Shown: one piece after another, positions 2,342 to 37,208 of the stretch
How positions within the stretch are numbered: the stretch's first letter is position 1
How the letters are laid out: the number at the start of each line of letters is the position of its first letter
Assembly: GCA_963790205.1 (NCBI GenBank)
Contig: CAWBNQ010000001.1
Location: forward strand, 672,001-736,000
From: Nitrospirota bacterium
GTDB taxonomy: Bacteria > Nitrospirota > UBA9217
Direction of reading: 5' to 3'
Length of the DNA stretch: 64,000 nucleotides
Position numbers and translations under genes: made by a program
Notes under the pieces: model-generated
Told to the model about the DNA's origin: nothing
The model's database searches: none
Seen by the model: only the letters and a program-made list of their open reading frames with translations

Positions 2342-2386
2342 TCACTCCCCGACGATCTTGACCAGCACCCGCTTCTTTCTCCTGCC
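2342..2386 (-). pseudogene. yjbQ: 3' fragment of yjbQ separated from the rest of the gene by the island
   Basis: Reads GRRKKRVLVKIVGE*, the canonical YjbQ C-terminus that is missing from the ORF at 36822-37208. Confidence 0.93.
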
Positions 2387-2391
2387 TCCCG

Positions 2392-2420
2392 TTAAATGAC
2401 ATTCGAGTGTATTATATTGG
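2392..2420 (+). repeat. Terminal imperfect inverted repeat, low-coordinate end
   Basis: TTAAATGACATTCGAGTGTATTATATTGG matches the reverse complement of 36807-36835 at 19/29 positions; an inner copy AAGTGTAGGACATATG at 2468-2483 matches the other end at 14/16. Confidence 0.75.
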
Positions 2421-2852
2421 AATAAACAGAGGAATTAAAGAGGTTTTTTGCTTTTAAGACAGATATTAAGTGTAGGACATATGTAAATTTTCGTATTTTG
2501 CGGACTTCAATCAATAAAGAAAAGATGCATCGCATAAAGACAGGCAGATAACCTCAGCTACAACATGATACCTCCGCACTCCAGACATTTTGCGAACTTT
2601 CAGTTGTATATGAAAATAATGGCGTGAGGGGCGCGGCTTTTAGCGACCCTCTCGACGCGTCTCGTTTACGTGCGGTTTCTGCTCTTCCGAGGCTTACTCC
2701 ATTTCAGACACTACGTTATATATGGGTAGAGCATGAGGTTAGATTCTCCCATTAAAGTATAGGGAAAATTATCTTCAAGACTACCCAAAATAGAAACCTC
2801 CTGCTAAGAATAAGTTTATAGCGAAACTAAATTCTTGTGGCAGGAGGTTCCT

Positions 2853-4160
2853 ATGAATTATGTAGATGATATCAGACTTGAGCAGTTTCTTCAACTGAAG
2901 AAAGAAATTCGCGGTTCGGAAAAGCATTTGATCGTCGGCATTGACGCGGCCAAGGAGAAGCACAACGCTTTTTTCGGTACGGCACGCGGAAAAACGCTGG
3001 TTAAGAATCTGGTCTTTGACAACACGCTTGAAGGCTTTCAAAAGCTGCTCGCCTATGTCGAGCGAATCAAAGTTCAATATAGCCTGACCACGGTCGTTTT
3101 CGGAATCGAGCCGACGGCGAACTATCACAAGCCCCTGGCGGAGCATCTGATCAAGTGCGGGCACATGGTCGTTCTCGTGGGAGGCGTCGCGGTCAAGAAC
3201 AACCGGCAGCTTCTGGACGGCCGCTGGGACAAACATGACGTCAAAGACGCGGCAAACGTCGCAGATCTTATCGCCCAGGGGAAGTGCCTGTTTTACGAAT
3301 ACCCCCTGATGACACTGCGGAACGTGCGCGTCCTGATCGCACTCAAACGGCGTTTAAAGAGAAGGGAACACGGCATGAGCGTATGTGTTCGCAATCACCT
3401 CATCGCGCAGTATTTCCCCGAGTTGGACCAACACTACGGCCCATCGGAAACCCTGACGGTGGTAAGGGAATGTCTTGACCCCTCGGAGATCGCCGGCATG
3501 GAATACGATGCCTTCTGCCGCACCGTCGCGCCGGGCAAAATGACGCTGGCGAAGGGCCGCAGGGTGGGAATGATCTGGAGGGCCGCGGTTGATTCCATCG
3601 GCTGCACTATGGGAGAAGCGGCGTCTTTCGAAGCTCAAGTCATGGTGGACGGCCTGAAGCAGATCAGGCAAACCATCAAGTCGGTGGAGGAAAAACTCGA
3701 AGATGCCTGCATGGAATTTCCGGAGTACACCTACTTGCTGAGCATTCCGGGGTTCGGACCGGATGTTTCCTCAAAGGTGCTTGGGGCCATTGGAAATCCA
3801 CGCCGCTTTACGAGCGCCAAGCAGGTATTGAAAATGGCAGGCCTCGACCTGTGCGCGGATCGAAGTGGCAAGAAGTCCACCAGCGCGATACCGGTCATCT
3901 CCAAGCAAGGCAAGGCCGATCTCCGCTACGGACTGTATCAGGCGGCATTTATCGCCTCGCTTAAGAACAAGGACTTTATCACCTACTTTACGAACAAGCT
4001 CAAGGGCCGGGCAAAGGAGAAAGGCATCGTCACAAAGATGCGCGTCAAGCTGGCCGCGAAGCTCCTGGTTATCGCTTGGACGCTGATGAAAAAAAAAGAA
4101 TGCTTTGATCCGAAATATCTCAAACAGGAGGATGAGGCCGCGAATAAAAAAGCGGCATGA
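2853..4160 (+). CDS. IS110-family transposase/recombinase (DEDD RuvC-like domain plus Tnp domain)
   Basis: VGIDAAK, GIEPTANYH, KHDVKDA (D-E-D-D); SIPGFG, RRF.SAKQ, RSGK catalytic-Ser motif; RBS GGAGG before ATG 2853. Confidence 0.93.
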   Translation: MNYVDDIRLEQFLQLKKEIRGSEKHLIVGIDAAKEKHNAFFGTARGKTLVKNLVFDNTLEGFQKLLAYVERIKVQYSLTTVVFGIEPTANYHKPLAEHLIKCGHMVVLVGGVAVKNNRQLLDGRWDKHDVKDAANVADLIAQGKCLFYEYPLMTLRNVRVLIALKRRLKRREHGMSVCVRNHLIAQYFPELDQHYGPSETLTVVRECLDPSEIAGMEYDAFCRTVAPGKMTLAKGRRVGMIWRAAVDSIGCTMGEAASFEAQVMVDGLKQIRQTIKSVEEKLEDACMEFPEYTYLLSIPGFGPDVSSKVLGAIGNPRRFTSAKQVLKMAGLDLCADRSGKKSTSAIPVISKQGKADLRYGLYQAAFIASLKNKDFITYFTNKLKGRAKEKGIVTKMRVKLAAKLLVIAWTLMKKKECFDPKYLKQEDEAANKKAA

Positions 4161-4184
4161 TCCGTGAAACGTAAAAAACCAATT

Positions 4185-4366
4185 TCGGCGAGAGAGCCCG
4201 GGACACTACGTTGAGGCTACGACCTCGGTGGGGACAATACAGGACCTCTCGTTTGAACGATAGAATCTGGATAAGGTATTCTGGGCGGCCAAACTGAAAG
4301 CGCGGCATGCCGAATAGGCTGTAACGATTAGAGTTATCGTTCGTCTGGATGCGAGAGACTCGCCGA
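4185..4366 (+). ncRNA. Candidate IS110 bridge/seek RNA
   Basis: Stems 4185-4192/4359-4366 and 4255-4262/4335-4342; GACACTACGTT (4202-4212) is identical to the left target flank 2707-2717. Confidence 0.65.
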
Positions 4367-4698
4367 TCAAAGCGATGCTGGCAGGAATGCCGGGAGGAAA
4401 GCTGCGTCTTCAATCGACGCAGAAAACCATCTGATTGAAAATTATGAAAACTAAACTGTCACTTGACGGGAGCGTTATAGTATGTCCTCAAGATTCTGCT
4501 ATCACAGCAGACCTTAGCAGGCACACCTTTTCCGACTAAGCAACACGTCACCACTCACCGTTAACAAAGATTACTTCACCGAAGCATTACCCTAAATGTC
4601 GAAGCGTCTCGACCATCCTCCTGCCGCTACGGGCTTCTTGAACACTGGATTGGGTACGATGTGAAAATGTCGTCTCAATCCTTAAAGGTTAGGCCTCG

Positions 4699-5130
4699 CT
4701 ACCTTCCGGCGATAGTCCATGCTGCAAACACGAGCAGTGCTCCAAATCCAACAACAAAGCCACCGACTTGGATTGTGTCGGCGACCTTTCGCCGCCAATT
4801 GAGTTTCCAACGCCACTCCTTGGCAGACTTTTTCTCATAGTCGAGACCCCAGGAGATGTAGTACTGAGCCCAGAGTCGCATATGAAATATTCCTGCGATC
4901 GTCGAGATCGCTAGCGCAGCCCATCCTGCTAAGAGTGCAGCCTTCATAGCTGCAGAGATCGGACTACTGCCAAGGATATCCTTGGTGAACGTAACGGAAA
5001 AGACGAATGCGCCGGCCGCAATTGACATCAAATGCTTGATGTACTCGATTCTGTAGTTGTTCCCTAGGCCAATATCCAGATGGGCTTCTGAGAGCGTTCG
5101 ATTATCTGTTTCATGTGTTTTCTCGTTCAT
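4699..5130 (-). CDS. Hypothetical membrane protein (about 3 TM helices)
   Basis: Three hydrophobic segments; start chosen at MNEKTHE with GGAGAG RBS. Confidence 0.7.
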   Translation of the reverse strand: MNEKTHETDNRTLSEAHLDIGLGNNYRIEYIKHLMSIAAGAFVFSVTFTKDILGSSPISAAMKAALLAGWAALAISTIAGIFHMRLWAQYYISWGLDYEKKSAKEWRWKLNWRRKVADTIQVGGFVVGFGALLVFAAWTIAGR

Positions 5131-5254
5131 CAGAGACTCTCCTTTAAATGTGCTGGCGGCACAGATGTGAGGCAACACGCGCGTGAACCGCAAGCATTTC
5201 GCGGCGACGCGCAGGTTGGGCCATATTGGCCGTCTATTGACGGCGCTTGTCCTC

Positions 5255-6172
5255 TTATGGAAGCTTATTCTTTAGCAGCTGCGAGCGGATATGTTTCATT
5301 ATATGAGCCTGATGCGAAATGATATTGTCATTAGAACGCTTGAACACGTCACCAAACTTAGTCCCTTGGTTTTTCTGAAGACGGGCCTCGTCTGAAAACA
5401 AACATTCTTTAGAAGAACTAACGTAATTGCACAACCATGTCAATTTTGAAGACAACGGAGTTTCTGCTGCAATCATCTTATCGCTCGCCGTTTCCTGCAA
5501 GATGTTATCAATTTCATCAGCTAAATAAAAGTCACCAGCGATTGGATCGTAACCGAGATAATCAACAAAATATAGACCATCGGTATCAACACATACCATG
5601 TGAGCTATGCGATTTTTTATGAGTATAGGTATCTTTGGAATAGGGTCTGAAAGTAAAATTTTAATTAATTCGTCGTCAATTACTGCCCGGGGGTACAAAG
5701 CGGCCCTGGATTCAATGCGGTAAGCTTTGACTAAAGCTTCTCCTAAGACCATATCTCTCTTGTGAAATAAACGGCCACAAGAGATGCCGCCTCGCGTACG
5801 AACTCCTAGGCTTAGAAGACCCCTTTGTAACCAAAAAACCGATTGAAGACAACGTAATATTGGGACGACTCTACTATTCAAAGAATACTCGTTATCTCTT
5901 TCACGTTCAGGGAAAGACATCGTTATTGCATCAGAAAGCAATGTAATCTTGTCATACGCACCGAATGGCTTATCAAACTGTATTTGAACTTCTTTGCCAG
6001 TTCGCACATGGGGCAGTGAAAAAAATACTTCTTTTTTACTTCCTACTAAAGCGGAAAACAAACTATATATTGCTTGGGCATAATTTTCAGATTGATCTGT
6101 TGCAAGCATCTGGTCAGATATTCCAAGAACATCGATAAATGCTACATACCTATTTTTGTATTGCAGGTGCAT
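5255..6172 (-). CDS. Class III nucleotide cyclase-like fold protein
   Basis: YVAFIDVLG, LLSDAITM, RGGISCGRL…GEALVKAYRIE, YPR motifs resemble the two metal-binding Asp and the RxGI.xG segment of AC/GC domains. Confidence 0.6.
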   Translation of the reverse strand: MHLQYKNRYVAFIDVLGISDQMLATDQSENYAQAIYSLFSALVGSKKEVFFSLPHVRTGKEVQIQFDKPFGAYDKITLLSDAITMSFPERERDNEYSLNSRVVPILRCLQSVFWLQRGLLSLGVRTRGGISCGRLFHKRDMVLGEALVKAYRIESRAALYPRAVIDDELIKILLSDPIPKIPILIKNRIAHMVCVDTDGLYFVDYLGYDPIAGDFYLADEIDNILQETASDKMIAAETPLSSKLTWLCNYVSSSKECLFSDEARLQKNQGTKFGDVFKRSNDNIISHQAHIMKHIRSQLLKNKLP

Positions 6173-6241
6173 TCAATCACTTTTTAGACAATCAAATTAA
6201 ATTAAGAAATCTTTCGTAGCGTTGGAAGTTTCTATCAGATG

Positions 6242-6871
6242 TTAGGTCGGTTTTTTATCAATACCGTGCTTTTCATATACCTTCGATTTTTCCGGCTGTG
6301 CCCAGTGGGTATGAGGAAACGTCGGGATTTCCCGATCGAATTCTTTCAACAATTCTTTTCTTGCATCAGCCCAAAGCGCAAAGATTTTATCTCTCACAAT
6401 TTTTCCATCATCAGTTGTGATTTGCTTGTTATATCCCAAATCACTTATCAAACGGAGTATATCCTTGACCGGTTCAAATGGATAAAGACCGATTTTGTTA
6501 TCAGTTTCACCCAAGTTCATGAAGACACCCCGAACCTCTTCAATAGCAGCACTGAGACTACAAAGAGTTTCACTATACTGTTCCTTAGTAGGGTACTCGA
6601 TATGAGTATACTGACTTGCTGTCTGGACCGCCTTCACTAAGGTGCTCCACAAAAGCCGCAATTGCTGCATATAGCTTGAGCGTCGTTGCAAACAATAGCC
6701 AAGCCAAGCTGCGGGAATAGCAATTATAAATGGAATCATGTCCTTATACGTTGAATAGATCACAGAGTTAGTTGTTTTGTCATATAATCGAAGCGATATG
6801 CCCAAAGCAACTGCCGTAAGGTAAATAACGCTGGCTACGAAGAACCACCTGAATAATTGTCTTTTTGTCAT
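6242..6871 (-). CDS. Hypothetical protein with two N-terminal TM helices
   Basis: 209-aa ORF with two hydrophobic segments followed by a helical soluble region. Confidence 0.7.
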   Translation of the reverse strand: MTKRQLFRWFFVASVIYLTAVALGISLRLYDKTTNSVIYSTYKDMIPFIIAIPAAWLGYCLQRRSSYMQQLRLLWSTLVKAVQTASQYTHIEYPTKEQYSETLCSLSAAIEEVRGVFMNLGETDNKIGLYPFEPVKDILRLISDLGYNKQITTDDGKIVRDKIFALWADARKELLKEFDREIPTFPHTHWAQPEKSKVYEKHGIDKKPT

Positions 6872-7238
6872 ATTCTATTTTTTACGCTCGAATTAAAGGC
6901 ACAGCTGGGCCGCCCCAGTTGCCACGCTTTCATATTTTCGAAAGAACATCTTATTGACTATTATGAACCAGCCATCTATAGGGATATAGAGCTATCTACC
7001 GGTATATACTTTTCGAGGTTTGCTTATTTCACGAACCAGATCCCGGAGGAACCGATCCGCTACCATATCGTACAATGCCACGAATATATGCCGAATCCCG
7101 TGGCATGTCAATCGCCCGAGATGGATATAGAGGGGTAGCAGCCAATCAATTCCACTTGTAGTATTGGAATTTCGCGGACCCGTAACTAAAACAAGTGCAG
7201 AAAGAATTCTTCGAGATGTAGAAAAGGTTTATTCTGTA

Positions 7239-7823
7239 TTAATGCTTCTTTGTAGAATGCTCTTGCCGGTTTATAATTTCCTCAGAGCTTATAAACATAT
7301 AACCTTGATTCAAAACTTTGTTATATTCCATTACGATGTTGGTCGCATTTGTAAACCAGTAATATTTATTCTTCAATTTATTCGGTTTGTCCGGCCTGCC
7401 ATATTTATGAGCTGTGACCTTCTTGAGTTTATTGAAATTGTCATATCCTGCAAATTTTATATCCACATCGGATAGTTTATTTTGCCAAAATCCATATTGA
7501 ATGCTTGTAAGTGTTACCCCTCCGACTTCAAGTGGATCGTCTTTTCTAGAATAAAACTTGACTCCTCCGTAGCTGGGATCTGTTCTGGGATGGATCATCA
7601 CGTCTTTTACCAAAGAAAAATCAGTACCCCAACTAATGCCTCTGAACCCCTCCGCCTCTTCGGATATGCCTTTCGTTGAGGATGCAAATGATAACGCAAT
7701 CACTATGATAAAAATCGCTACCCGTTTTATAACAACCTCGCTTTTATTACGAATGGTAAAAGCAATAGTCTTGGCCAGATTAATCTCCGGAATAACTATC
7801 CAAATCGGGCGAAACAGGGCCAC
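7239..7823 (-). CDS. Hypothetical exported protein (start uncertain)
   Basis: Signal-like KRVAIFIIVIALSFA followed by GFRGISWG motif. Confidence 0.6.
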   Translation of the reverse strand: MALFRPIWIVIPEINLAKTIAFTIRNKSEVVIKRVAIFIIVIALSFASSTKGISEEAEGFRGISWGTDFSLVKDVMIHPRTDPSYGGVKFYSRKDDPLEVGGVTLTSIQYGFWQNKLSDVDIKFAGYDNFNKLKKVTAHKYGRPDKPNKLKNKYYWFTNATNIVMEYNKVLNQGYMFISSEEIINRQEHSTKKH

Positions 7824-7849
7824 TTATCTACCGAATATGCAGTTGAGTC

Positions 7850-8401
7850 TCATCTGGGAACGCATCTCTCTGACAAGCGGCGTAAATCAGCAGAGTAACA
7901 AGCTGGAAACAATACACATAGTTGTTCAAACGTCACAGCATTAAGACTTCCTGCAATTGCACGAGCACGATAAGCTGCAGGAAAGGTACCCCCAGGAAGC
8001 GCACGAGTCAATTGAAGCGCCTCAAGGTAATTTCCAGATTGAGGGACTTGAGCAGCAAGGCCGTATAGGCCTTGCGCGTAAATAGAAAACTCAACGGCGA
8101 CCCCTTCCTCAAGGAAGTTCGTGTTGCTTACAGTCGGATTTAATAAGTGAATCGTCTCGTGAGCCATTTCGTACACGACGGTAGGCCAATAGATTTTGCT
8201 AGTCGGGCTGAGCTCAGCAAACGCACCATCGAGCGTAGGTGTATTGCGTAGATGAGGTCCGTTGTCGTGAAAAACGGGTTGATAGATTGTTTTCGTTCGG
8301 TCACGTTCGCCGAGAAGTTTTTCGGCCAGTGTCAGCAGTTCTTGCTGTAAAGCCCAAAGGCCTGGATAGTCATGTTCCGGAATCGAGGTGGGTAGTTGCA
8401 T
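7850..8401 (-). CDS. HExxH zinc-metallopeptidase-like protein
   Basis: YEMAHETIHLL followed by FLEEGVA (zincin third-ligand motif). Confidence 0.65.
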   Translation of the reverse strand: MQLPTSIPEHDYPGLWALQQELLTLAEKLLGERDRTKTIYQPVFHDNGPHLRNTPTLDGAFAELSPTSKIYWPTVVYEMAHETIHLLNPTVSNTNFLEEGVAVEFSIYAQGLYGLAAQVPQSGNYLEALQLTRALPGGTFPAAYRARAIAGSLNAVTFEQLCVLFPACYSADLRRLSERCVPR

Positions 8402-8444
8402 ATTGAGCTATCGTTATCGCTTTTCTGAGTTCAGGTTGGGGCAA

Positions 8445-9488
8445 CTAAATATTTTCCCCGTAGTATTGCTTGTAAACATCTTTAAAGATGAGCGGGAAAT
8501 TACTCGTGAATTCTCTAAAACCTTCGCTATTATCCTGGTACTCATAGTGTCTCAGATGTTTAAAGTCAAAGGGAATGTCAGATATATCCTGAGTAAGGAG
8601 GATTGCAGGTTTTCCGATGGCATGAACAATTCCTACTTCGTACAGGACATTCGGATTTTTTGCTGTCAAATCAGCAACAATAATTGCGCATTGGTTTATT
8701 TTAGTCCATATATCCTCAATGATAATAGGTCCGTTCAAATTATCCGCACGTAGGCATTGAAATCCGAGTGCTTCAACATTTTCTCTTATCAACTCTTTGT
8801 AGACATGATCGGACCATTCCTTTTTAAAAGGCATCAATACGAAGCAAAGTCTCGGATCTATTTGTTCAATCTTCGTTCTAAAAATTGGATGCGGTTTATT
8901 TGAGGATGAATTATCTTCGGCTGAATATCCTAACGGATTTGCTACGGGTCTTACTTTTGGTGATGATTCTCTTTGGTGATTAATTATCAACTGCTCGATG
9001 TCTCGATATTTTATATATTCGTCGAAAACCTCATTTCCGTCTAGGGCAAATTTGGCAATGCCGCCGTAATTAGTGAGTGAATATGAAGTAGATGTGAAAC
9101 TGCCAAGTCCACTAATGAATCGCAGGATAACCTCAACTTCATATTTGTCAATGCCAGACTGTGTTGATATCTCTTCTGATGATATTTCTCTCAGCTCCGG
9201 ATTTTTAAATAGGAAGTCTTTTATGAGCAGAATGACCTTATGTGTTTTTTCTATTAAATCTGTTTCCGGATCTAAATGCCATATACCTAGAAGGGTTAAT
9301 CTGTCTTCTCCTTCTAGCAATCGTCTGTCAATCTGATAGGGATTAAAGTCGTCAGGTATTTTTCCGAGTAATTCAATCTTTAAACTTCTATGGCCTGCCT
9401 TTTCTCGTGTCTTAAATTTTGTATATATCGCTCCAAGCCACGCTTTAGCGTCATCGGTAATTTCTATTTTAGGAAAATTATAGGGCAT
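8445..9488 (-). CDS. Protein with C-terminal nucleoside 2-deoxyribosyltransferase/TIR-like domain
   Basis: CFVLMPF, CLRAD, IVADLTAKNPNVLYEVG, GKPAILL, IPFDF motifs. Confidence 0.75.
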   Translation of the reverse strand: MPYNFPKIEITDDAKAWLGAIYTKFKTREKAGHRSLKIELLGKIPDDFNPYQIDRRLLEGEDRLTLLGIWHLDPETDLIEKTHKVILLIKDFLFKNPELREISSEEISTQSGIDKYEVEVILRFISGLGSFTSTSYSLTNYGGIAKFALDGNEVFDEYIKYRDIEQLIINHQRESSPKVRPVANPLGYSAEDNSSSNKPHPIFRTKIEQIDPRLCFVLMPFKKEWSDHVYKELIRENVEALGFQCLRADNLNGPIIIEDIWTKINQCAIIVADLTAKNPNVLYEVGIVHAIGKPAILLTQDISDIPFDFKHLRHYEYQDNSEGFREFTSNFPLIFKDVYKQYYGENI

Positions 9489-9597: not shown

Positions 9598-10779
9598 TCA
9601 ATTTATCGAAAAAACCTCATGCAATAGTGATTGAAATAAATGTTCTGCCTGTCGTAATGATTCCACCTGTGTCGTATGCAGACCTTCGTGGTTCCGAATG
9701 CCCTCAACATATTTTATTTGCAGCGGCATCGGGGGCAGTGGAATCCGTAATTCGGACAAGGTTGATGTGTTCATGAAAGTGTACGCATCTTCTTGCCCGG
9801 TCTTTAACTTACCAATTTTTGAAGCAAAATAGGTCATCAGTATCACGAAATATTCGGGCAAGCACTTTGTCGGATCAAGAGAAAGTCTAATAGTGTTACT
9901 GTGAATGATGGACTTCTCATAGCTGGTCTTAACTATAGCCATTCTTCCGACAGTTCCAGCACGCGATACGATGATATCACCGTTCCTAACCGTGTAAGCT
10001 TTAAGCTCCTCATATTTTTGGGGAGTAATGTAAAAACATTTGTCCTCGCGGAATTCGTTCGCACCCACGCAGTCCACCGTCCATACCGGGATGCCGCTTG
10101 AAACATATTCATCCTTCTTAAGGGCGCTACCAAATGGACCACATTTTACACCATCTTTATTGTTAGGGAACAATTCTTCAACCTGATAAAGAGAATAGTT
10201 GTTTGGATTGTGAAAGGGATCGCCAAAAAATTTCAGGAAAACTGATGGAAGCACTGTATCATTAATGTCCAGAGCATATCGGCGCATTTGTCTCAAATTG
10301 TCGGCACTTTTTAACATCTCAGCTATAAGCTTTTGCTCAGGCATATCGCGATAGGGTATTTCAACAGCCTCCATAATTTCTTTTGTGACCTCGTCAAAAG
10401 TTGCTCCTCTCCCTTTATTGACGATGGCAGGTGTCAAATATTTAAGCGCGAAGTATCCGTAAAGTGGATTGAGATATTTATTTGGAATAATATTTTTGAA
10501 ACCTTGATTTGTACAAAGCGGGAAGGCAGTAACGGCACAATGTCCGATTGGCGCTCGGCTACTAAACAAAATGGTTCCTGTCGGTAGCATTTTTAAAGAA
10601 CAGCTGTCATATCCTTTTTTTGATATTTTTTTTAATGCTCCGTGAAAATATATTTTGTCATTCGATGATAAATCCGCGGGTGTTACCCATGGGATATCAC
10701 CATTCCAATATTTTGGCTCGTTAGTTCTAGGCGTAGATCCAGAGACTATTTTACCGAGCTCACTTAGAGGCTTTATCAT
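9598..10779 (-). CDS. hsdS: Type I RM specificity subunit
   Basis: SGSTP…YWNGDIPW, SSRAPIG, TNQGF, GPFGS, IPLPP..LQ; two TRDs. Confidence 0.92.
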   Translation of the reverse strand: MIKPLSELGKIVSGSTPRTNEPKYWNGDIPWVTPADLSSNDKIYFHGALKKISKKGYDSCSLKMLPTGTILFSSRAPIGHCAVTAFPLCTNQGFKNIIPNKYLNPLYGYFALKYLTPAIVNKGRGATFDEVTKEIMEAVEIPYRDMPEQKLIAEMLKSADNLRQMRRYALDINDTVLPSVFLKFFGDPFHNPNNYSLYQVEELFPNNKDGVKCGPFGSALKKDEYVSSGIPVWTVDCVGANEFREDKCFYITPQKYEELKAYTVRNGDIIVSRAGTVGRMAIVKTSYEKSIIHSNTIRLSLDPTKCLPEYFVILMTYFASKIGKLKTGQEDAYTFMNTSTLSELRIPLPPMPLQIKYVEGIRNHEGLHTTQVESLRQAEHLFQSLLHEVFSIN

Positions 10780-12493: not shown

Positions 12494-12501
12494 TACTCTC
12501 C

Positions 12502-16012: not shown

Positions 16013-16180
16013 TTAATTCTCCTCTCGCTACCATTTATAAAACTGATACTCGCGAATTGCGATTCGCAGAACGTGTGTCTTAAGTCTACATTATATGACG
16101 GATTTGTCAATATTTTTCTATTTTTGATGTTGTGTTAAAAACCTCCTTGAAAGTTAATGATAACAAAACTTGGAGGACGC

Positions 16181-16504
16181 ATGAAACCGACAACGAAGAA
16201 GCTGCTGGGGGCAAGAATCAAAGAGCTGCGTAAATCAAGAGGCTTCTCGCAAGACGAGCTCGCGGAAAAAGTAGATATCGACGCCAAACACATGAGCCGC
16301 ATCGAAGTAGGTGGCAGCTACCCCTCCCTGGATACTTTGGACCGGATTGCCAAGGCACTCGGCGTCGAACTAAAAGATTTTTTCGATATAGTTCATGAAT
16401 CAAAGAGAGCCGATCTCATACGAGCAATAATGAGCTTGATCAAAGATGCTGACGATGCCCAATTGAAACTCCTCGTCAAAATTGCTCGCGCCACTGTACG
16501 CTAG
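16181..16504 (+). CDS. XRE-family HTH regulator (RM controller-like)
   Basis: LGARIKELRKSRGFSQDELAEKV…SRIEVG…PSLDTLDRIAKAL; GGAGG RBS. Confidence 0.9.
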   Translation: MKPTTKKLLGARIKELRKSRGFSQDELAEKVDIDAKHMSRIEVGGSYPSLDTLDRIAKALGVELKDFFDIVHESKRADLIRAIMSLIKDADDAQLKLLVKIARATVR

Positions 16505-22634: not shown

Positions 22635-22672
22635 TAGAAAAGCTTCGTAAGTAACTGAAAATATTAACTATT

Positions 22673-22697: not shown

Positions 22698-22737
22698 AAA
22701 ATAGTCGTTCTAAATTCGAGAAGCGATGCGGCTCCCA

Positions 22738-22766
22738 TTGACACCGTTTTGAATCAGGCATATAGT
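22738..22766 (+). promoter_or_regulatory. sigma70 promoter upstream of the DUF6361-PLD-helicase operon
   Basis: TTGACA-N17-TATAGT. Confidence 0.6.
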
Positions 22767-28900: not shown

Positions 28901-29343
28901 TGCTTGATCGCATCCAGCGATCTGTACGAGACGTGTCTGGGCAACGGGTGAGCCACGTTTCGCTGACCCGATACATGATTAATCTCTCGCCACTTGGAAA
29001 AGCACATGCAATTGCCAGGGCGGCGCTTGAGGCCGATGAGGTCGCAGGTTCAACCGAGAAGCTGAAGCAGCTACTTACGGATGTCGAGCGAATTGAGGTC
29101 GATCGCAGTACCGAGTTGCTCGCGGTCAAACGTGACCTAGAGCAGCTTAAAGCCATCGTCCGACGGCAATTAAAGGCGCTAAACGAAGACGTTGTACCGC
29201 TAACGGCAGCGGTCCGCGCCCTTATCTATTTGCGCGATCCATACGACGCCGTGATGGATCAGCACGTTGCCCTTGGACTACAAGATGACCTCGAAGTGAT
29301 TCGATCGGCAGCCCGCGTGCTGGCGAGGATTCCCGTCAATTAG
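25921..29343 (+). CDS. SF2 (SNF2-like) helicase (ZacC-like)
   Basis: LADEVGLGKT, DEVQRF, LSATPY, FNSPFWP, SVGQEGLDFH, PSNPVDLEQREGRINR. Confidence 0.9.
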   Translation: MSDLKLAEFQSAAAQTICDRLTDRNGSRRFLLADEVGLGKTVVARGVIEELLRRRRGRDLNVVYLCSNSEIADQNRIKLAPKAPPSVRRITQLAWSGSGSDSDRLQLYSFTPGTSLTAGTGMAWERRMLLYLAYRVLRLDILRGNWRNYFRCGAGKENWRKDTRFRSLKNEFSRKLRSGLQERIADEWKKPIEIGGATLVPLSALRAEVDMFDPEDPESRRRRNKLIGILRTGAQRALLDELEPHLVILDEVQRFREVIEEAGSKKSIAARLFERDPAVLILSATPYRMLSLDHEGQGNYDEFLDTVRFLFAAKGKGEVNNLRADLKAFRERLEVGVFLRGNDTDLLTLKFRIETRLRKVICRTERNAYIQDQSKGIEEFRPTGNAFAVPQKQEVVDFIRLRRFLLDKVDTSQHITEYWKSCPAPFTFMDAQYAPMAAAKRKKAIVPTGVVEPPSRLRELAHRNLRFRQLFQAVFGATNTPWKFLWTRPTYTYYRDEFFRDADPAKMLVFSGWRFVPKAIALLTSLEAEQRIAPHGRLWEAEYSQPLSFTEKGSYHIFDVCFPSPALARLIEPSSMAYEELTAKEVLKRSRKSLKAALTKAGIVIADTNNSPLWQVVARLEKNASTLVHLKLKECSAYRGNHATDLFEEHVDTFVDWMNSDEPLRISEERLTHLAMIVAFSPAIALLRAFWSTFPSAGRQVPIGLVDLCFGALRSYFNRRTVRAIVQRSVPEGRRYARAVIEYCQRAHFQAVADEYLYVGKNVLQRNTPGEMAEHLQRVLGIGTGSPNINLTTDTGRLRQDQLARRAHFALAFGEDLKADQESHLEQSGPSRKTAVREAFNSPFWPFVLSTTSVGQEGLDFHLFCRDIVHWNLPSNPVDLEQREGRINRRDGLVIRRAIAREWPMKRLTRALTGEPTSFWDGVFNVIGEASDVQRYKHGLYPHWIFESRGGQVERIRRHLFFYADSQDASRYDELKERLALYRLVFGQPRQQDLLDRIQRSVRDVSGQRVSHVSLTRYMINLSPLGKAHAIARAALEADEVAGSTEKLKQLLTDVERIEVDRSTELLAVKRDLEQLKAIVRRQLKALNEDVVPLTAAVRALIYLRDPYDAVMDQHVALGLQDDLEVIRSAARVLARIPVN

Positions 29344-29664
29344 AGGGCGACTGCGTTGTCTGGCGGTTCTTGGTTTTCCAGCCGATGAGCCGGTGAGTTT
29401 CTGCGCCGTTCATTAGCGACGTTTATGTGCATGTTACCAGATAAGTAATCAGTATTTTGCACGATGTAGTGGGTGGAGCTGATATTGTCTGTCTATCTTA
29501 TCCGATGCTGAAATACTTCTTGAAGTATATACTATCGGGATCTAAAGTCAGTGTCCGGCCAGATCGGAATTGATGTCTGACGCAAACTGGAGCGGTCGTT
29601 CGAACGCGATCGGAACGGATGTCCGATCCTATTGGAATACGCAGCTCTTGACAGGAGAATCAAT

Positions 29665-30135
29665 ATGGACGCAATAATTGAGCTCTTTACTGTTGCGATA
29701 CAAGATCTAAAAAATAAAGACAACCCCATTTTGCGAAACCAGATAAGAGAGGAATCTATAAATCATCGGCTTGCTTGTTATTTGGAAAAACACCTGAATG
29801 AGTTTCAAGGCGGAAGTACTTGCGTAGATATTGAATACGACAAGCATGGTGATGATAAAAAAGAGAATGTCTATAAAAAAGAATTTAGGCCCGACATAAT
29901 AATTCATCGAAGAATGGTCGACAGCCATAATTATGCTTATGTTGAGGCAAAGAAAAATCCAACACAAAGAGAAATAATCGAAGATGAGAAGAAAATAGAG
30001 CTGGCAATAAAACCACCGTTCAATTACAAATGGGGGATCCGAGTCACGTACGGAAATGGTTTTGAAAAAATAAGACTAAAGCTGTTCTGGCTAAACAAAG
30101 ATTCTGCTGTAGAAAAAAAAGACTTAGAAATCTAA
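29665..30135 (+). CDS. PD-(D/E)XK nuclease-like protein
   Basis: E.SINHRLA.YL, VDIEYDK, RPDIIIH, VEAKK; AGGAGA RBS. Confidence 0.7.
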   Translation: MDAIIELFTVAIQDLKNKDNPILRNQIREESINHRLACYLEKHLNEFQGGSTCVDIEYDKHGDDKKENVYKKEFRPDIIIHRRMVDSHNYAYVEAKKNPTQREIIEDEKKIELAIKPPFNYKWGIRVTYGNGFEKIRLKLFWLNKDSAVEKKDLEI

Positions 30136-30191
30136 GCCAGCTCGTTGTCAATAAATTAAATAGTGAAAGATAGTAGGAGACTTGGTCGATT

Positions 30192-30755
30192 ATGGGCGCC
30201 ACACGTATAAAATATCAAGAGGCCGAGTTCTTCCTCAACAAGCTGGACGAGCATTACTACGATGATATTCAAAACATGCTTGCCGGCAAAATCGATCGGC
30301 CTATTTTTCTTTATAATCTAAGTGCCTTCTTGAGTGCTGCCCGAAGTGTCACATGGATTATGCGCAATGAATATGCCACCATTCCTGGATGGGAGCAGTG
30401 GTTCCGAGGCCAGGCCCCCGAGAAGGAAGAGGCTCAATTGCTCTCGCTATTTAACCAGCTTCGTATCAAGAGTGAGAAAATTCGTCCAATTCGTCCGGGA
30501 AGGGCATTCCGCCTCGAGGGTGATAAAGGTTCTCCGATTGAGCGCGATCCGCGCCTACCGCGGTTTCACATCACTATAACCGCAGTCGACCCAGAATCAG
30601 GTTCCGGGCCGGTTATGGCCGGCGAGGTCGTCGAGTGTAGTTGGACTATTGATGAACTCGATGGTGCAGATCTCGTAACAGCCTGCCGTAGGTATCTTCA
30701 ATCGATCGGAACTCTTCTTGAAAAATGCGAAGCACAGTTCGGATCACCTACATAA
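30192..30755 (+). CDS. Hypothetical protein (possibly degenerate HEPN-like)
   Basis: EAEFFL…YNLSAFLSAARSV…LR pattern; RxxxxH incomplete (LRIKSEK). Confidence 0.6.
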   Translation: MGATRIKYQEAEFFLNKLDEHYYDDIQNMLAGKIDRPIFLYNLSAFLSAARSVTWIMRNEYATIPGWEQWFRGQAPEKEEAQLLSLFNQLRIKSEKIRPIRPGRAFRLEGDKGSPIERDPRLPRFHITITAVDPESGSGPVMAGEVVECSWTIDELDGADLVTACRRYLQSIGTLLEKCEAQFGSPT

Positions 30756-30815: not shown

Positions 30816-32261
30816 TCAAGCAGATTCCCGACATGGTAGTCTGAATCGATCTCCCTTGGCTCTACGACTCCTGCTCCCATCCCCGCAGTCCAGACATTCT
30901 TTATTCGTTGCAGGCTCCACACTACTTACTGTGCGCTCCCGTATAAACCCTATCAGGTGATTCAGGGAAACAGTGCCCTCATAAAGGCCGGTAAACATCA
31001 TCATTAGATCATTGACCACTTGTGCCGCAGAGAGAACATTGAGCGTAATTACGCTTGGTTCCTTGATTTCTTCGTCATCAACGTAGCGCTGCGATTTTTT
31101 TTCACCCTCTGAAAGCGCCTCCTGTCTGAGTCGTTCTGGAGAGATCAACTGATGGCAATCTAAACAGCCACCACCGTTATACGGAAGAACCAGGCGGCTC
31201 GCAACATGGATGTCGCCGACCGCGCCAGTGTTCTTATCAATCCCGACTTTCGCACCGATCTGTGCTCCAGGAATGAGATATTGATGAACGAGAGCATTAA
31301 ACACAAGGCGGCTCTGTGTTGTGTCGCTTGCCAAAAACAAAAAATCGGCATCTGTTAATAGGCAGGCAGTCTGTTTATCGACGACGTCACCGACGACAGC
31401 ATCGTAGCGTATTCTTGGCCTGGCTTGTTTCGCCACACGTTCGGCGACTCTTACCTTGTGTCGCGCATAACGCCTCCCGAGTTGTTGAAAAAAAGGATGC
31501 TTGCTCCCCGACAGGAAGGAGAGAGCATCCCAGTGAGTCGCACCGACAATCCGCGGCAAGTTCGTAATATCGACCCTGTCAAAATCAACAGCCACGATAT
31601 GGCCGACCCCGAGACGGGCAAGCCACTCATTTATCAGTGAACCGCCGCCGCCGAGACCAATTATCCCAACCTTCAGATTTGAAAGTATATACTGCCCGAG
31701 ATCACCAAAGAGCCTGGCATTTCGATCATCAATGAGATCGGCTTTCGGAGGCCGTTTTGCTCGTTCAGGGTATAAGTGCTGGATCCGGGGACCGATTACT
31801 GTGGCATGATTTAATGCAAACCGTCCTTCGGGTGTCCATATATCCCCGGCAACCGCATTTTTTGCAAAGACTAGTGCCCCAACAGGACCGCCGTGGGTTA
31901 TGTCAAGAAGGGCTGGGTAGCCCCGTTCGTGCGATGCAATATCTGTACTGGAAAAAGCGACGCTGTCTGAACCGCGGTGGCAGTGAACCGCGAGATAGCA
32001 TAGTTTCTCCGAAGCACAGTATCCGGAGACTTTTGCAACAAATTCTGCTGTAAGGGCCCGATAACCGCGGCTGCCCGGCACATATTCTATCATGTCTTTT
32101 GCAAGGAATACTTGTCGCACTAGAAGCCGAGTACCCCGCGCCGTTTCAGATATGCCTGCCGTAATAATCGCTCCGTGTTCATCGTCGTCACCTGGAAACA
32201 AGTGGTCGAACAACTCGCGATACAATGGTAGTGGAATCGTCAGCGATAATGGAAGTTTCAT
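30816..32261 (-). CDS. JAB peptidase fused to ThiF/E1-like adenylating domain
   Basis: EHGA…VHCH…FSSTD (JAB); GIIGLGGGGS, DFDRVDITNLPR, two CLDC Zn motifs (E1). Confidence 0.88.
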   Translation of the reverse strand: MKLPLSLTIPLPLYRELFDHLFPGDDDEHGAIITAGISETARGTRLLVRQVFLAKDMIEYVPGSRGYRALTAEFVAKVSGYCASEKLCYLAVHCHRGSDSVAFSSTDIASHERGYPALLDITHGGPVGALVFAKNAVAGDIWTPEGRFALNHATVIGPRIQHLYPERAKRPPKADLIDDRNARLFGDLGQYILSNLKVGIIGLGGGGSLINEWLARLGVGHIVAVDFDRVDITNLPRIVGATHWDALSFLSGSKHPFFQQLGRRYARHKVRVAERVAKQARPRIRYDAVVGDVVDKQTACLLTDADFLFLASDTTQSRLVFNALVHQYLIPGAQIGAKVGIDKNTGAVGDIHVASRLVLPYNGGGCLDCHQLISPERLRQEALSEGEKKSQRYVDDEEIKEPSVITLNVLSAAQVVNDLMMMFTGLYEGTVSLNHLIGFIRERTVSSVEPATNKECLDCGDGSRSRRAKGDRFRLPCRESA

Positions 32262-32271
32262 AGTCGTCTCC

Positions 32272-32652
32272 TTATTGTACGTTCAACCATTCCAAAACCT
32301 TCGCCAGCTTGAAAGCGGCCGTGTCGACGGCCGGGTTCAGGCGATTGGATCTTCTAGAAATCTGCCAGACTTCCTTGTTGCGCCATGTTGTTGAGGAGAT
32401 TCCCCCGCCGTACTGACTACCGTCTGTCCGGCGAACTGCCCGGTCAAAAAAGTGAGGATACACATCGGAGCGCGGATACTGAAAGTCGATCAGGAATCCC
32501 ATCCAGTTCTTGGACGGAGTAAACTTTCCACCGAAGTCGAGGTCATGAACAATAACATACGCCCCGCCTTGAGGTTCACTTTCTGTCTCGATCGTGGACC
32601 CCGGAAAGTAGCATTTTATTTCCTCAATTGCTTGCTCTACCTCCGGTGTCAT
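32272..32652 (-). CDS. Prokaryotic E2-like (UBC-fold) protein
   Basis: F.IDFQYPRSD.YPHF and W…WQISRR motifs; lies between the Ubl and E1 genes. Confidence 0.7.
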   Translation of the reverse strand: MTPEVEQAIEEIKCYFPGSTIETESEPQGGAYVIVHDLDFGGKFTPSKNWMGFLIDFQYPRSDVYPHFFDRAVRRTDGSQYGGGISSTTWRNKEVWQISRRSNRLNPAVDTAAFKLAKVLEWLNVQ

Positions 32653-32942
32653 ATGAAGCCTCCGCTGTTATCATCAGTCGTCACCGCCCGGAAACGTTCA
32701 CCCTCATGCAGGGCTTCTGTCTCGTCATCCCTGACCTGTTTCAAGTTGTTGCCCGGATTTACTCTGAAGAGGTTGAAATCCTTCTGGATCGGCGCCCCCT
32801 GGGCTATCGCTGCGTCCTTGATCTCCATGCCGGTTGCCTTGTGTCCCTGGATGGTAACGCTGTATTTCTCGTTGACGATGATCGTGGTTGTCTTCGCCCC
32901 ATGCCCTTCTACTTTTTCCTTCTCCTTCACTGTCTGGTCCAT
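32649..32942 (-). CDS. Multiubiquitin-type ubiquitin-like protein
   Basis: TIIVN…ATGMEIK.AA…F.LF…L.EGERF beta-grasp pattern; ends DDNSGGFI. Confidence 0.75.
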   Translation of the reverse strand: MDQTVKEKEKVEGHGAKTTTIIVNEKYSVTIQGHKATGMEIKDAAIAQGAPIQKDFNLFRVNPGNNLKQVRDDETEALHEGERFRAVTTDDNSGGFI

Positions 32943-33123: not shown

Positions 33124-33501
33124 ATGACAACACGCGCTACAATGGCTCACCTGAGCGCATTGATCAAAACAAAAAGAAAAAATGAAGACATTGGATTAAG
33201 AACGGCTGCCGATCAAGCCCACGTGAGTGCATCTACTTTATCGAGGTTGGAACGAGGAATATCACCGTCACTGCCTGATTTTGATACAATCACTAACCTA
33301 GCTAAATGGCTCGATATCCCTGTTAGCTCTATTCTTAGTGAAAAGGAAACCCCAAAAAAAAAGAATGCACCCTCATTTGAAACGCCAGAGCAAATAGAAG
33401 TCTATCTTCGTGCAGACAAAAACCTCACTCCGGAAACAGCAGGTGCACTATACAAATCATTCAGAATTCTGTATGATCAGTTCACAACTAAAAGAAAGTA
33501 A
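33124..33501 (+). CDS. XRE HTH regulator (CapH-like)
   Basis: GLRTAADQAHVSASTLSRLERG; adjacent to an IrrE-type peptidase. Confidence 0.85.
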   Translation: MTTRATMAHLSALIKTKRKNEDIGLRTAADQAHVSASTLSRLERGISPSLPDFDTITNLAKWLDIPVSSILSEKETPKKKNAPSFETPEQIEVYLRADKNLTPETAGALYKSFRILYDQFTTKRK

Positions 33502-33529
33502 GAAATAATATTTTTACGGGAGATTCTGG

Positions 33530-34087
33530 TTGGGTAAATCAAATTATCCAAAATGGGTTGAAATACAAGGATATTACCTTCGACAACACCTGCGGTTATC
33601 GTCTTATGATACGCTCGACCATTTAGCTCTTGCTCAGGCAATGAAGGTAAAGATTCTTTCGATTAAGGATGTTTCTGCTATTCCTGCGACTATCGTCTCG
33701 CACTTATTGTCAAATGATCGTTGCAGTTGGTCGGCTGGATGCTTGCGACTTCCTGAGGGGAACGAATTACGCGCGGTGATCCTTTATAATCCAACTCACG
33801 CAATTACTCGACAACGAGCAACAATTATGGAGGAGTTGTCCCATCTTCATTTGAAGCACAAAGGCAGCAAGCTTACAAGAACGGATGGAGGATCAGGTTT
33901 CCGTAGTTATAATAAAAGCGAGGAAAGTCAGGCATACTTCGTGGGTGCGGCAGCATTATTGCCAGTCGAAGTGCTGAAAAAAGCCCGCGTAGAGCGAACA
34001 TTACGATATGAGGTGGCCAGCAAGTGCGTTGTAAGTGAGGATCTTGTTCTCTTTCGCGAAAAGATAACCGGCGTAAGACTATCATAA
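33530..34087 (+). CDS. ImmA/IrrE-family metallopeptidase (CapP-like), EExxH variant
   Basis: ILYNP.H…RQRATIMEELSH…H and EE.QA..VGAAALLP. Confidence 0.8.
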   Translation: MGKSNYPKWVEIQGYYLRQHLRLSSYDTLDHLALAQAMKVKILSIKDVSAIPATIVSHLLSNDRCSWSAGCLRLPEGNELRAVILYNPTHAITRQRATIMEELSHLHLKHKGSKLTRTDGGSGFRSYNKSEESQAYFVGAAALLPVEVLKKARVERTLRYEVASKCVVSEDLVLFREKITGVRLS

Positions 34088-34137: not shown

Positions 34138-35181
34138 ATGAATAGTGTGCCTTTGGCTTCAAGATTAGAAGGCAAGCGAGTTGGCGATTGGGATGTGATA
34201 GATAAAAGAGAAAAAAACAAGCAAGATAACAGCGGTGCTTTTTCGAGCTGCTACCTTGTCGAAAATGTCGTCAATGGCACGCTTGGTTTCTTAAAGGCGT
34301 TTAATTATTTATATGCTTTCAATGCAACAGGAAGAAAGGGTCAATCAGCCGATATCTTAAAGGAAATAACAAGTGATTTTATTTATGAAAGAGAACTCTT
34401 AGAGTTTTGTAAAGAAAATAGAATGCAGCGCGTAGTAACAGCCCTCGATCATGGCGAGTATACTGAAACGGGCGAACATTTCCCTGTTCCCTATCTAGTC
34501 TTCGAGACGGCAGATGGCAGTTTGAAAAATGTTAAGACGCTCAAAAATCCGAGCTTGGCATGGAAGCTTCGAGCTTTTCATGGGAGTTTGGTCGGCCTAC
34601 AACAGCTTCATAATAAAAATATCGCACATCAAGATATTAAACCTTCCAATATCCTAATATTTGGAGATACTATTTCTAAATTATCTGATCTCGGTAATGC
34701 AACTCAAATGCTAAACGAGTCTCCCAAATGGAGCAAGCAAGAATGTTGCGGCGACATGCGGTATGCCCCGATAGAGCTGCTGTACGGGCATTTCAGTACA
34801 GATTGGGACACACGACGATACGGTGCCGATCTTTTTATGATGGGTGGTATTATCACCTTCCTTTTGACGGATAGTAACTTCTTATGGATCACGCTCAACA
34901 ATTTACCCGAGGAGTTTAGGCCAGTAAAGTTTGGCGGTACTTTTGAGCAAGCAAAGCCCCATCTCATAGAGGCGTACTACAAGACGCTTAAGATCATCGA
35001 AAAGACCTTACCTGCGAACATAAAAAATGAATTGATGGAAGTAGTTGCTCAACTTTGTCATCCAGTACCCGAAGAACGCGGCAATCCCAAAAACATTTAC
35101 ACAAGTGTTACGCAGTATTCTTTGCAGCGTTACATTTCAAAAACTGATAGATTAGCCAAGATAATAGAATTTGAGAAATAA
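34138..35181 (+). CDS. Hanks-type Ser/Thr protein kinase
   Basis: SGAFS Gly-loop, FLKA Lys, HQDIKPSNIL, SDLG, YAPIE, DLFMMG. Confidence 0.9.
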   Translation: MNSVPLASRLEGKRVGDWDVIDKREKNKQDNSGAFSSCYLVENVVNGTLGFLKAFNYLYAFNATGRKGQSADILKEITSDFIYERELLEFCKENRMQRVVTALDHGEYTETGEHFPVPYLVFETADGSLKNVKTLKNPSLAWKLRAFHGSLVGLQQLHNKNIAHQDIKPSNILIFGDTISKLSDLGNATQMLNESPKWSKQECCGDMRYAPIELLYGHFSTDWDTRRYGADLFMMGGIITFLLTDSNFLWITLNNLPEEFRPVKFGGTFEQAKPHLIEAYYKTLKIIEKTLPANIKNELMEVVAQLCHPVPEERGNPKNIYTSVTQYSLQRYISKTDRLAKIIEFEK

Positions 35182-35184
35182 AAG

Positions 35185-36696
35185 ATGAATGATACACAGA
35201 ATACACAACGAGCACATGTCGTGCCGAAGTGGGCAGGTTTTTCAAAAGCCTCAAAGAAAGGCGAACTCCTTGTTCCCAGAAAGAAGTCATTTGCAATTAA
35301 TGCATATACTATCGGGAAAATTGACGCTGAGTATCGGGAGTATAAGCAATCACCTTCTATTGAAAATGCAATGTCTTTATTGGGGTCAGCTCTAATAACA
35401 GCAAATGCATCTCTTGCTCATGATACTGCGAGTTTCCTTAAAAGTAAGAAAAATGTAAGCAAAACGGCAATGGATTTTGCGGATAAGATTCTTCATCCTG
35501 GCAAGAATGATGAATCTGACTTTGAAACAGCTCTGCAAATAACGAAGATCAAGGAATGGCTGAATAAGTATCCTAAGAGTGCACTTCACTGGATCGAATT
35601 GGCACGTTTGTATACAATTAGTGGTCAACATGATAAAGCTAAAAGGGCAGCAGTGATCGCTCTAAATCTAGCACCGTTTGACCGTTACGTTGTGCGCTGT
35701 GGTGTGCGATTTTTTATCCACATACTAGACTTTGATTCTGCTTGGCATTACATCCATAAAGCAAATAGTCATGCTAGGGATCCCTGGTTAAAAGCCACAG
35801 AGATGAATGTTGCTCTTATAGCAGACAAGGGTACGCCTTCCTTTAGAAGACTTCTTCCGCAAGGCCTTAGTGGAATTGATTTGTTCCATTATTCGGAGCT
35901 CTTCGAAAGCTGCGGGATTTTAGAGCTTCGCAATGGCAAAGCTAAAGAAGCTAAAAAGCTATTTAAAACGGCTTGGACAACACCCTGTGAAACTGTGATT
36001 ACTCATGGCGAGTGGGTAATTCGGAATAAGTTTCCCGGGCTCAGAGAAAATAGCAATCTACAATATGAGAGAAGTTCCGAGGCTCTAACTTGGATAAAAT
36101 ATTTTGATCTGGATCTAACGGGTGCTCTTTCGACAGCTAGGGACTGGGAACTAGAGGAACCCTATTCCCGGGGGCCATTTGTATTAGGCGCAAGCATAGC
36201 ATGTTGTGCAGAATTGCCTGGCATGGCGATAGAAATCGCACAGCGAGGTCTAAAGGCAAATCCCGATGATCCGAAGATACTAAATAACTTGTGCTATGCA
36301 TTTCTAAGGGCCGGACGTATTTCTGAGGCGGAGAATGAATTCAAAAAATATGTACCTTTGGAAAATGATGAATCAAAAATATTTTACTTGGCCACTAAAG
36401 GGCTCCTGGAAATAAAACAAGGCAATTTGTCAATTGGCAGAAACCATTATCTTGAATCTATTAGATTATGCAAGTTGCAGGGGGATCGGGATTTGGTCGC
36501 AAAAGCATATCTTAATTTGGCTCTTGCCGAGTTGGAGGCTTTAACACTCGATGCAACAAAAACGGTTCAATTAGCGCTGTCTGTATCGGAAGGGTCTAAC
36601 CAGCCTGACGTTAGAATGTTAAGGAAGCAAATAACAAAAAATCTTAATGAAGGCGCGATTAAGAGAAGTAAAGCCGCTCGTACGAAAAGCAAATAA
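35185..36696 (+). CDS. TPR-repeat protein
   Basis: WIELARLY…G…KA, GLKANPDD..ILNNL.YA helical repeats; starts 3 bp after the kinase stop. Confidence 0.8.
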   Translation: MNDTQNTQRAHVVPKWAGFSKASKKGELLVPRKKSFAINAYTIGKIDAEYREYKQSPSIENAMSLLGSALITANASLAHDTASFLKSKKNVSKTAMDFADKILHPGKNDESDFETALQITKIKEWLNKYPKSALHWIELARLYTISGQHDKAKRAAVIALNLAPFDRYVVRCGVRFFIHILDFDSAWHYIHKANSHARDPWLKATEMNVALIADKGTPSFRRLLPQGLSGIDLFHYSELFESCGILELRNGKAKEAKKLFKTAWTTPCETVITHGEWVIRNKFPGLRENSNLQYERSSEALTWIKYFDLDLTGALSTARDWELEEPYSRGPFVLGASIACCAELPGMAIEIAQRGLKANPDDPKILNNLCYAFLRAGRISEAENEFKKYVPLENDESKIFYLATKGLLEIKQGNLSIGRNHYLESIRLCKLQGDRDLVAKAYLNLALAELEALTLDATKTVQLALSVSEGSNQPDVRMLRKQITKNLNEGAIKRSKAARTKSK

Positions 36697-36806
36697 AGTA
36701 CACCGAATAGACGTAGGCCTGCTAGGCATCGTAGCCCGACTGAACAACCGCCACGATCTCCACATATTTCTCAGTATTGATGACTAACCTTAGTCCTAAA
36801 CTAGCG

Positions 36807-36835
36807 CTTATATCCTACACTTCAATGGAATAGAA
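36807..36835 (-). repeat. Terminal imperfect inverted repeat, high-coordinate end
   Basis: Reverse complement TTCTATTCCATTGAAGTGTAGGATATAAG; partner of 2392-2420. Confidence 0.75.
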
Positions 36836-37208
36836 CGTCGAATTCACCGTAGAAGACCTGCTCCCAGGGGCCGAAGTCGAGCTTGCCGCTCGTGACGGCT
36901 ACGACGACCTCGCGGCCCATGACGGAGCGTTTCAAGTGCGCGTCCGCGTTGTCTTCGCCGCTGTTATGGCGGTACTGGGAGACCGGCTCGTGCGGCGCGA
37001 GCTTTTCGAGCCAGACCTCGAAATCGCCGAGGAGGCCGCGCTCGTCGTCGTTGATGAACACCGAGGCCGTGATGTGCATGGCGTTTACGAGGACCAGGCC
37101 CTCCTGAACGCCGCTCTCCCGCAGGCAGTCCTCGACCTGGGGCGTGATGTTGACGAAGCCCCGGCGGGAAGGGACGTTGAACCAGAGTTCTTTGCGGAAG
37201 CTCTTCAT
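36836..37208 (-). pseudogene. yjbQ: yjbQ (UPF0047, secondary thiamine-phosphate synthase), 5' part disrupted by the island
   Basis: [35 protein letters not shown], then island-derived VLFH*. Confidence 0.93.

Follow-up and report, generated by a model that had tools for sequence, protein, structure and literature searches.

A defence-gene island inserted within yjbQ of a Nitrospirota bacterium and its likeness to integrative elements with strand-biased circularization

A 64,000-nucleotide stretch of DNA from a Nitrospirota bacterium (assembly GCA_963790205.1, contig CAWBNQ010000001.1, positions 672,001 to 736,000; referred to here as the window) carries the gene yjbQ in two pieces separated by an island of 34 kb. 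The split of yjbQ is genuine and stands as an observation. The island is best explained (probability roughly 0.72) as an integrative element of the strand-biased circularizing (SE) type which was put into codon 125 of yjbQ by its own IntA, Tfp, IntB and Srap proteins and which would leave by copy-out. An initial annotation of the window had proposed that a recombinase-made insertion divides yjbQ without regenerating it, and the analysis presented here supports this.

The interrupted yjbQ gene and the ends of the island

The open reading frame (ORF) at 37208-36822 on the minus strand agreed with Pfam UPF0047 and TIGR00149 as far as residue 124, after which it reads V-L-F-H-stop. The missing last 14 codons (G-R-R-K-K-R-V-L-V-K-I-V-G-E-stop) were found at 2386-2342 on the same strand as the 5' part, as the initial annotation had noted, and they share 43 of 45 nucleotides with the corresponding stretch of an uninterrupted yjbQ in a related locus (L008). 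Forty relatives were searched for yjbQ orthologues and 26 orthologue loci were picked up by a motif search in L002-L030; the F-D-G followed by the tail was unbroken in all 26. In the relative G014 parC (84%), an intact yjbQ and ftsH (85%, on the other strand than yjbQ) follow one another in matching order and orientation and the island is absent, so that the comparison with an intact ftsH-yjbQ-parC locus proposed by the initial annotation came out in its favour. A contig from another organism in run X1 tracks yjbQ up to 36836 and then departs from the window with a normal tail.

The truncated YjbQ is probably inactive because TM0723, a homologue of solved structure, shows conservation of the missing residues right to the C-terminus. 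A yjbQ paralogue of 34% identity with an open frame is located elsewhere in the genome on contig C11. Upstream of yjbQ, at 37327-37400, there is a 43-74 bp segment which is repeated at five other sites in the genome (87%-99% identity). In locus L046 the 3' part of yjbQ was observed a second time, frameshifted and directly upstream of a complete yjbQ (about 9930-10440).

The insert measures 34,450 bp and can be placed at 2386-36835 or at 2387-36836 because one G fits either side; beyond this shared G no duplicated core was found at the junctions, as had been stated. The nearly exact boundaries given at first held for this insert but overlooked the terminal repeats and a 6-bp footprint, with which the element proper becomes 2392-36835 (34,444 bp). 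The GC content of the island is 0.459 compared to 0.60 and 0.55 in the flanks. At its ends imperfect inverted repeats (36835-36815 and 2392-2412) match at 14 of 21 positions, which was reached in a fraction of 9e-5 of 200,000 random island-pair trials (9e-4 when taken as the best of 13 registers). This register was the best of 21 tested, and the next best had 11 matches.

In this register the 5' part of yjbQ, ending TCGACG, abuts one repeat while six non-yjbQ bases separate the other repeat from the yjbQ tail. According to PMC9345347, PMC10214605 and bioRxiv 2022.09.22.508988 an SE circle carries six bases of the left flank of its donor site, and upon insertion these are placed at the intA-distal end whereas the central six bases of the target stay intA-proximal. 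Both the length and the orientation seen in the window conform to this rule, the footprint being on the intA-distal side as the rule demands. At the break position the 26 yjbQ alleles carry TCGACG (18), TTGACG (6) or TCGATG (2), and none of them has CGGGAG, so that the corresponding position in another yjbQ was not the origin of the footprint. Instead it would derive from the previous donor site, and the host 6-mer TCGACG is predicted to be copied into the circle. Two alternatives were considered and rejected. The footprint occurs in 2 of the 26 alleles if the register is shifted by 4, but about 7% of random 6-mers occur in that set. A short duplicated core (ACG at both junctions) would shift the frame by 4 upon recombination, and the inverted-repeat register is the better account of these bases. 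No transfer RNA gene was found in the window, and Rfam gave no match for 2000-37500.

The recombinase operon and related elements

Apart from a multicopy IS110 insertion sequence, the recombinase genes of the island form one operon on the minus strand (22523-17080) which encodes proteins of 376, 687, 628 and 158 amino acids (aa) in overlapping reading frames and which has the gene order and catalytic pattern of intA-tfp-intB-srap (Table 1). Among 48 Tfp homologues the first arginine position was occupied by N in 47 and the tyrosine was kept in 34. The island gave no further match to PF00589 and none to PF00239 or PF07508. A serine integrase was rejected as the mover, since the genome has no PF00239 match and a single PF07508 match on another contig; IS110 was likewise rejected, being a separate multicopy insertion sequence inside the island with ends that differ from those of the island. 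The non-coding ends of IS110 (2387-2835 and 4160-4509) comprise about 135 bp on the left and 330 bp on the right, with a short palindrome just after, at about 4497-4509. Elsewhere, an identical 346-aa tyrosine-recombinase frame is present in seven copies in the genome (G000 contigs C1, C3, C5, C6 and C14), which suggests an active multicopy element.

The start of intA at 22523 lies 14.3 kb inside the left end at 36835, and intA has its own promoter-like site at 22634-22606. Between the divergent promoter-like sites of intA and zacA, repeated CAGTG/CACTG motifs and a flanking inverted repeat were observed at 22660-22710, a possible operator. The orphan ORF at 16583-17059 follows srap at a distance of 21 bp; in its second half it is similar to the first part of a tyrosine-recombinase catalytic domain, and it ends before the catalytic residues.

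Table 1. Positions of the two yjbQ parts, the island ends and the island genes in the window
Feature	Position	Strand	Basis
yjbQ (UPF0047) 5' part, codons 1-124	36837..37208	-	frame runs on into the element as V-L-F-H and stops at 36822
Host 6-mer TCGACG kept beside the left end (attL)	36836..36841	-	matches 18/26 yjbQ alleles at the same position
Terminal repeat C, left end in intA direction	36815..36835	-	14/21 matches with other end; likeness to L062 ends
Kinase and tetratricopeptide repeat pair, PADLOC PDC-M71A/B	34138..36696	+	6e-101, 4e-92
Helix-turn-helix regulator and IrrE-like (M78) peptidase	33124..34087	+	family match
Three-gene operon: 97-aa protein without family match, Prok-E2_E-like protein, 481-aa protein with C-terminal ThiF/E1 domain	30816..32942	-	family match
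PD-Lambda-3_A-like protein and unknown ORF	29632..30755	+	7e-9
PADLOC ZacA-ZacB-ZacC (DUF6361, PLD-type, helicase)	22912..29343	+	GC 0.554, near host value
Divergent sigma-70-like promoters for intA (-) and zacA (+)	22606..22766		consensus match only; 2 found, 0.9 expected
intA, tyrosine recombinase, full R-H-R-H-Y set	21393..22523	-	all five residues invariant in 42 distinct homologues
tfp-like recombinase-fold protein, 687 aa	19339..21402	-	N replaces first R; first H absent
intB, long tyrosine recombinase, full R-H-R-H-Y set	17456..19342	-	all five residues invariant in 59 distinct homologues
srap-like small protein, overlaps intB end	17080..17556	-	27%, 2e-8 to fourth gene of L056
Orphan 158-aa ORF, partly like a tyrosine-recombinase fragment	16583..17059	-	E 0.007; 0.95; no homologue found
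Helix-turn-helix regulator	16157..16504	+	family match
Type I restriction-modification hsdR-hsdM-hsdS	9598..15291	-	family and PADLOC match
Six cargo ORFs, five without family match, one (8445-9488) with TIR/NDT-like effector domain	4699..9488	-	family searches
IS110-family insertion sequence, later passenger	2700..4487	+	three further genome copies (99.7%, 99.9%, 90.6%)
Terminal repeat C', right end in intA direction	2392..2412	+	14/21 matches with other end
6-bp foreign footprint CGGGAG (minus strand) between C' and yjbQ tail	2386..2391	-	sequence; rule from PMC9345347, PMC10214605
yjbQ 3' tail to stop codon, without own start	2342..2385	-	sequence comparison with intact orthologues

All four operon proteins could be aligned with those of a plasmid operon, L056 (E values of 3e-38, 1e-24, 1e-60 and 2e-8). 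The lengths and spacing of the second and fourth genes of L056 (1692 bp and 516 bp, 1906 bp apart) equal those of a Tfp/Srap pair catalogued in the supplement of PMC10214605, and in the annotation of that catalogue the fourth protein of L056 and the second protein of pMOL28 are given as closest matches. The homology of Tfp and Srap to the SE catalogue is therefore drawn through the L056 genes, by length, spacing and annotation source rather than by alignment of catalogued sequences. At 25%-40% identity the operon is widespread, an IntB relative being encoded in 315 of 598 metagenome candidates (80 of these were kept), but it is rare in the host phylum (3 of 401 genomes, its own included). A Tfp-based search of genome contigs for related loci gave no match.

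The closest element with mapped ends is a metagenome locus, L062, where the same geometry was found at a different target, lemA. This SE-like element of 9.5 kb (6543-16072) encodes IntB, Tfp and IntA homologues of 37%, 34% and 36% identity. Its left end follows directly after a ribosome-binding-like sequence and the ATG start codon of lemA, its right end is six bases before lemA codon 2, and its ends are inverted repeats (17/24) which start TT as do those of the window, with six extra bases at the intA-distal end. This footprint ends in ATG, so that the lemA frame is kept while the upstream signals are separated from it. With a profile made from the L062 ends alone, the window ends ranked 131st and 134th of 70,160 positions (top 0.2%).

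In genome G153 (contig C29, 63657-64413, L039) the left end and the 5' part of intA of a homologous operon were found duplicated in tandem with the first copy broken, the duplicated segment beginning about 207 bp before intA. Upstream of the duplicated intA there are defence-type genes (type I restriction-modification, Mrr-like, TIR-DnaB fusion). No empty site for this element was found among 15 genomes of the genus, and its right end was not clear.

Insertion, excision and competing explanations

On the SE reading, a circle originating from a site with central CGGGAG would have recombined with yjbQ codon 125 in a reaction for which sequence identity is not needed, and this would account for the lack of a duplicated core. 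A later one-strand exchange between the ends would give a new circle containing the yjbQ 6-mer and leave the host copy where it is, and with this copy-out mode yjbQ would stay broken. The 14.3 kb of cargo would have come to lie between the left end and intA, with intA served by its own promoter-like site; as no internal end was found, cargo gain between end and intA is the simplest reading.

We have to admit that several points weigh against this explanation. No junction-bridging read or contig was found in the runs examined; run X1, which may stem from the source sample, contained short identical island pieces at a depth of 2-4, with neither junction bridged. Copy-out has been shown only in Gammaproteobacteria in the sources cited, and some GInts yield empty sites (PMC5385486). 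The Tfp of the window retains the second R, the H and the Y, while SE Tfp is described as being without the RHRY motif. Published SEs have their operon at the left end, and in L062 it is 148-166 bp from the end, unlike its position here. The left end of L062 was first noticed by its likeness to the window end, so that the profile ranking is not fully independent, and for L062 there is no empty-site genome for comparison. Finally, the recombinase-like fragment at 16583-17059 is left without explanation by an SE.

If instead the same element and enzymes exchange both strands, in the manner of a GInt- or Tn916-like cut-out, the mismatched 6-bp joint would resolve to wild-type yjbQ or to an in-frame allele in which F-D becomes S-G. 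Both rejoined forms are in frame at 138 codons, and empty sites, wild-type and altered, have been detected for some GInts (PMC5385486). We consider this unlikely, since gene order and protein homology are SE-like and not GInt-like, and no SE making circles gave an empty site in the published accounts available (PMC10214605, PMC9345347); the empty-site joint was also absent from run X1, although the cover there was too thin to test it. A both-strand cut-out is nevertheless the closest defensible form of the earlier claim that clean excision would restore yjbQ. That claim itself is improbable in view of the SE record and because the two junction 6-mers differ, so that one of the two possible rejoined sites carries S-G. 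It is quite unlikely, too, that the island is an active SE-type element in a new host class, with cargo on both sides of its operon and mobile despite intA lying 14 kb from the left end, whose excision would reseal yjbQ as wild type or as the in-frame S-G form and which would in this way switch yjbQ integrity.

Distinctly improbable is a composite island, in which the ends would belong to an older SE-type element with decayed recombinases and the present operon would have arrived later, nested and with unrecognised ends of its own. Such a history would suit the central operon, the GC mosaic of the island (0.42, 0.55, 0.45), the recombinase-like fragment behind srap and the stacking of such elements indicated by the duplicated left end and broken intA copy of G153. 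However, no end-like sequence was found between intA and zacA (best 12-13/21), a profile of all four known ends scored high only at the outer ends (22.3 and 22.6; the next, 12.9 and 11.2, were within the range of other DNA), and no split gene was seen inside the island except at IS110. It is very improbable indeed that the arrangement is an assembly error or arose by chance rearrangement without a recombinase: the unbridged junctions and the fact that the island is known from this genome alone would allow it, but the two parts of yjbQ complement each other to the base, G014 shows unbroken synteny, inverted repeats and a 6-base footprint mark the ends, and the window has no N and belongs to a contig of 1.2 Mb.

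The initial annotation had also considered yjbQ to be the specific target and had proposed a search for other genes split at the same codon. We scanned contigs of GTDB species representatives with a pattern made of the yjbQ codons up to the break and, next to them, a codon other than glycine. The intact pattern is present in 187 of the 401 genomes of the phylum, so that the scan covers about half and misses other registers, divergent yjbQ and strain-level variation. No second split at this codon was found: none of the 11 scan hits was an insertion; each was a substitution or a small indel, and the tail came immediately after it (in frame in 8, shifted in 3). There was no operon homologue near the 11 hits, and the same pattern gave no hit in viral contigs. 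No SE, GInt or RIT element in yjbQ was found in the literature, and yjbQ is absent as a target from the 7 readable SE supplements; a preprint (10.1101/2024.07.25.605194) does describe yjbQ as a defence-island hotspot in Vibrio cholerae. As the closest mapped element is at lemA and the footprint is unlike the 26 yjbQ alleles, yjbQ is not supported as a habitual target, and one insertion is known.

Cargo and comparison with known element classes

Functions of the cargo were assigned from profile matches (Pfam-type families and PADLOC). Judged by these matches, the cargo consists largely of defence genes (type I restriction-modification, ZacABC, PDC-M71AB and others), and the earlier label of a defence island is a fair one. 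The operon at 30816-32942 is divergent from the helix-turn-helix and IrrE-like pair, and PADLOC matched its E1 part alone and weakly; it is a putative ubiquitin-like conjugation system and may resemble the Bil type. A 91-bp intergenic segment at 29505-29594 is 76% identical to C10:10244-10334, a few kb from tyrosine-recombinase genes on that contig. No conjugation or phage genes were found among the 30 island ORFs scanned.

The insertion had been regarded as mechanistically unusual, an impression gained by comparison with integrases that duplicate a core and by assuming excision to be reversible; neither fits the present case well. Characterised SEs split genes without rebuilding them, with circles but no empty site detected wherever circles were seen (PMC10214605, PMC9345347); SE-6283, for example, disrupts bcp (PMC9345347), and GInts also insert within a gene (PMC5385486). 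A caution for genome annotation is that excision need not be reversible where a gene rejoins in frame and no core is duplicated.

The GInts share with the island a set of three recombinase-fold genes and one small gene, a large cargo, within-gene insertion and a 6-nt staggered exchange giving variant junctions (PMC5385486). The protein without the first arginine is, however, third (GinC) in ginABCD and second here, and the direct imperfect repeats of 10-17 nt described for GInts were not found flanking the island, the junctions of which share one G. Tn554 (TnpA, TnpB, TnpC; as in PMC10214605) has one ordinary and one long tyrosine recombinase, a small accessory gene and a 6-bp footprint, but is without a Tfp counterpart as described there; it is set apart here by description, not by sequence. 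RIT elements (RitA, RitB, RitC; as in PMC10214605) also have three adjacent tyrosine-recombinase genes, yet their proteins are of 315-410 aa, their terminal repeats of 34 bp and they have no fourth gene, compared to 376, 687 and 628 aa plus srap in the window. Background on Tn554-like and RIT elements is given in PMC3414803.

With SEs the island shares the four genes intA-tfp-intB-srap in overlapping frames, the catalytic RHRY set in IntA and IntB, imperfect terminal inverted repeats of about 20 bp, a GC content below that of the host, a host 6-mer at attL with a foreign 6-mer at attR, gene insertion without target duplication, the lack of transfer genes among the ORFs scanned and a size inside the published range of 6-58 kb. 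It differs in that most listed SE ends start TAC or CAC while the window ends start TTC and TTA, in the residues kept by Tfp, and in its host, since published hosts are Gammaproteobacteria and the host class here comprises 64 genomes of one family outside that class. SE-6283 brings a replacement copy of its target bcp, and this island brings none for yjbQ. Because the operon at the left end, a defining feature of SEs, was looked for and lies 14.3 kb inside, the island is filed as an SE-like variant and not as a plain SE member.

This is a precisely mapped insertion explained by a known element class, in which both ends and the footprint can be read to the base and several defence systems are carried by an SE-type element. 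What interest remains lies in host range and in the displaced operon. The first brings a distant lineage into the range of SE-type elements, for which all published hosts are Gammaproteobacteria and a dependence on factors of those hosts is supposed; the second provides a natural test of the suggestion in PMC10214605 that attL and intA-tfp-intB have to act in cis as one intact unit.

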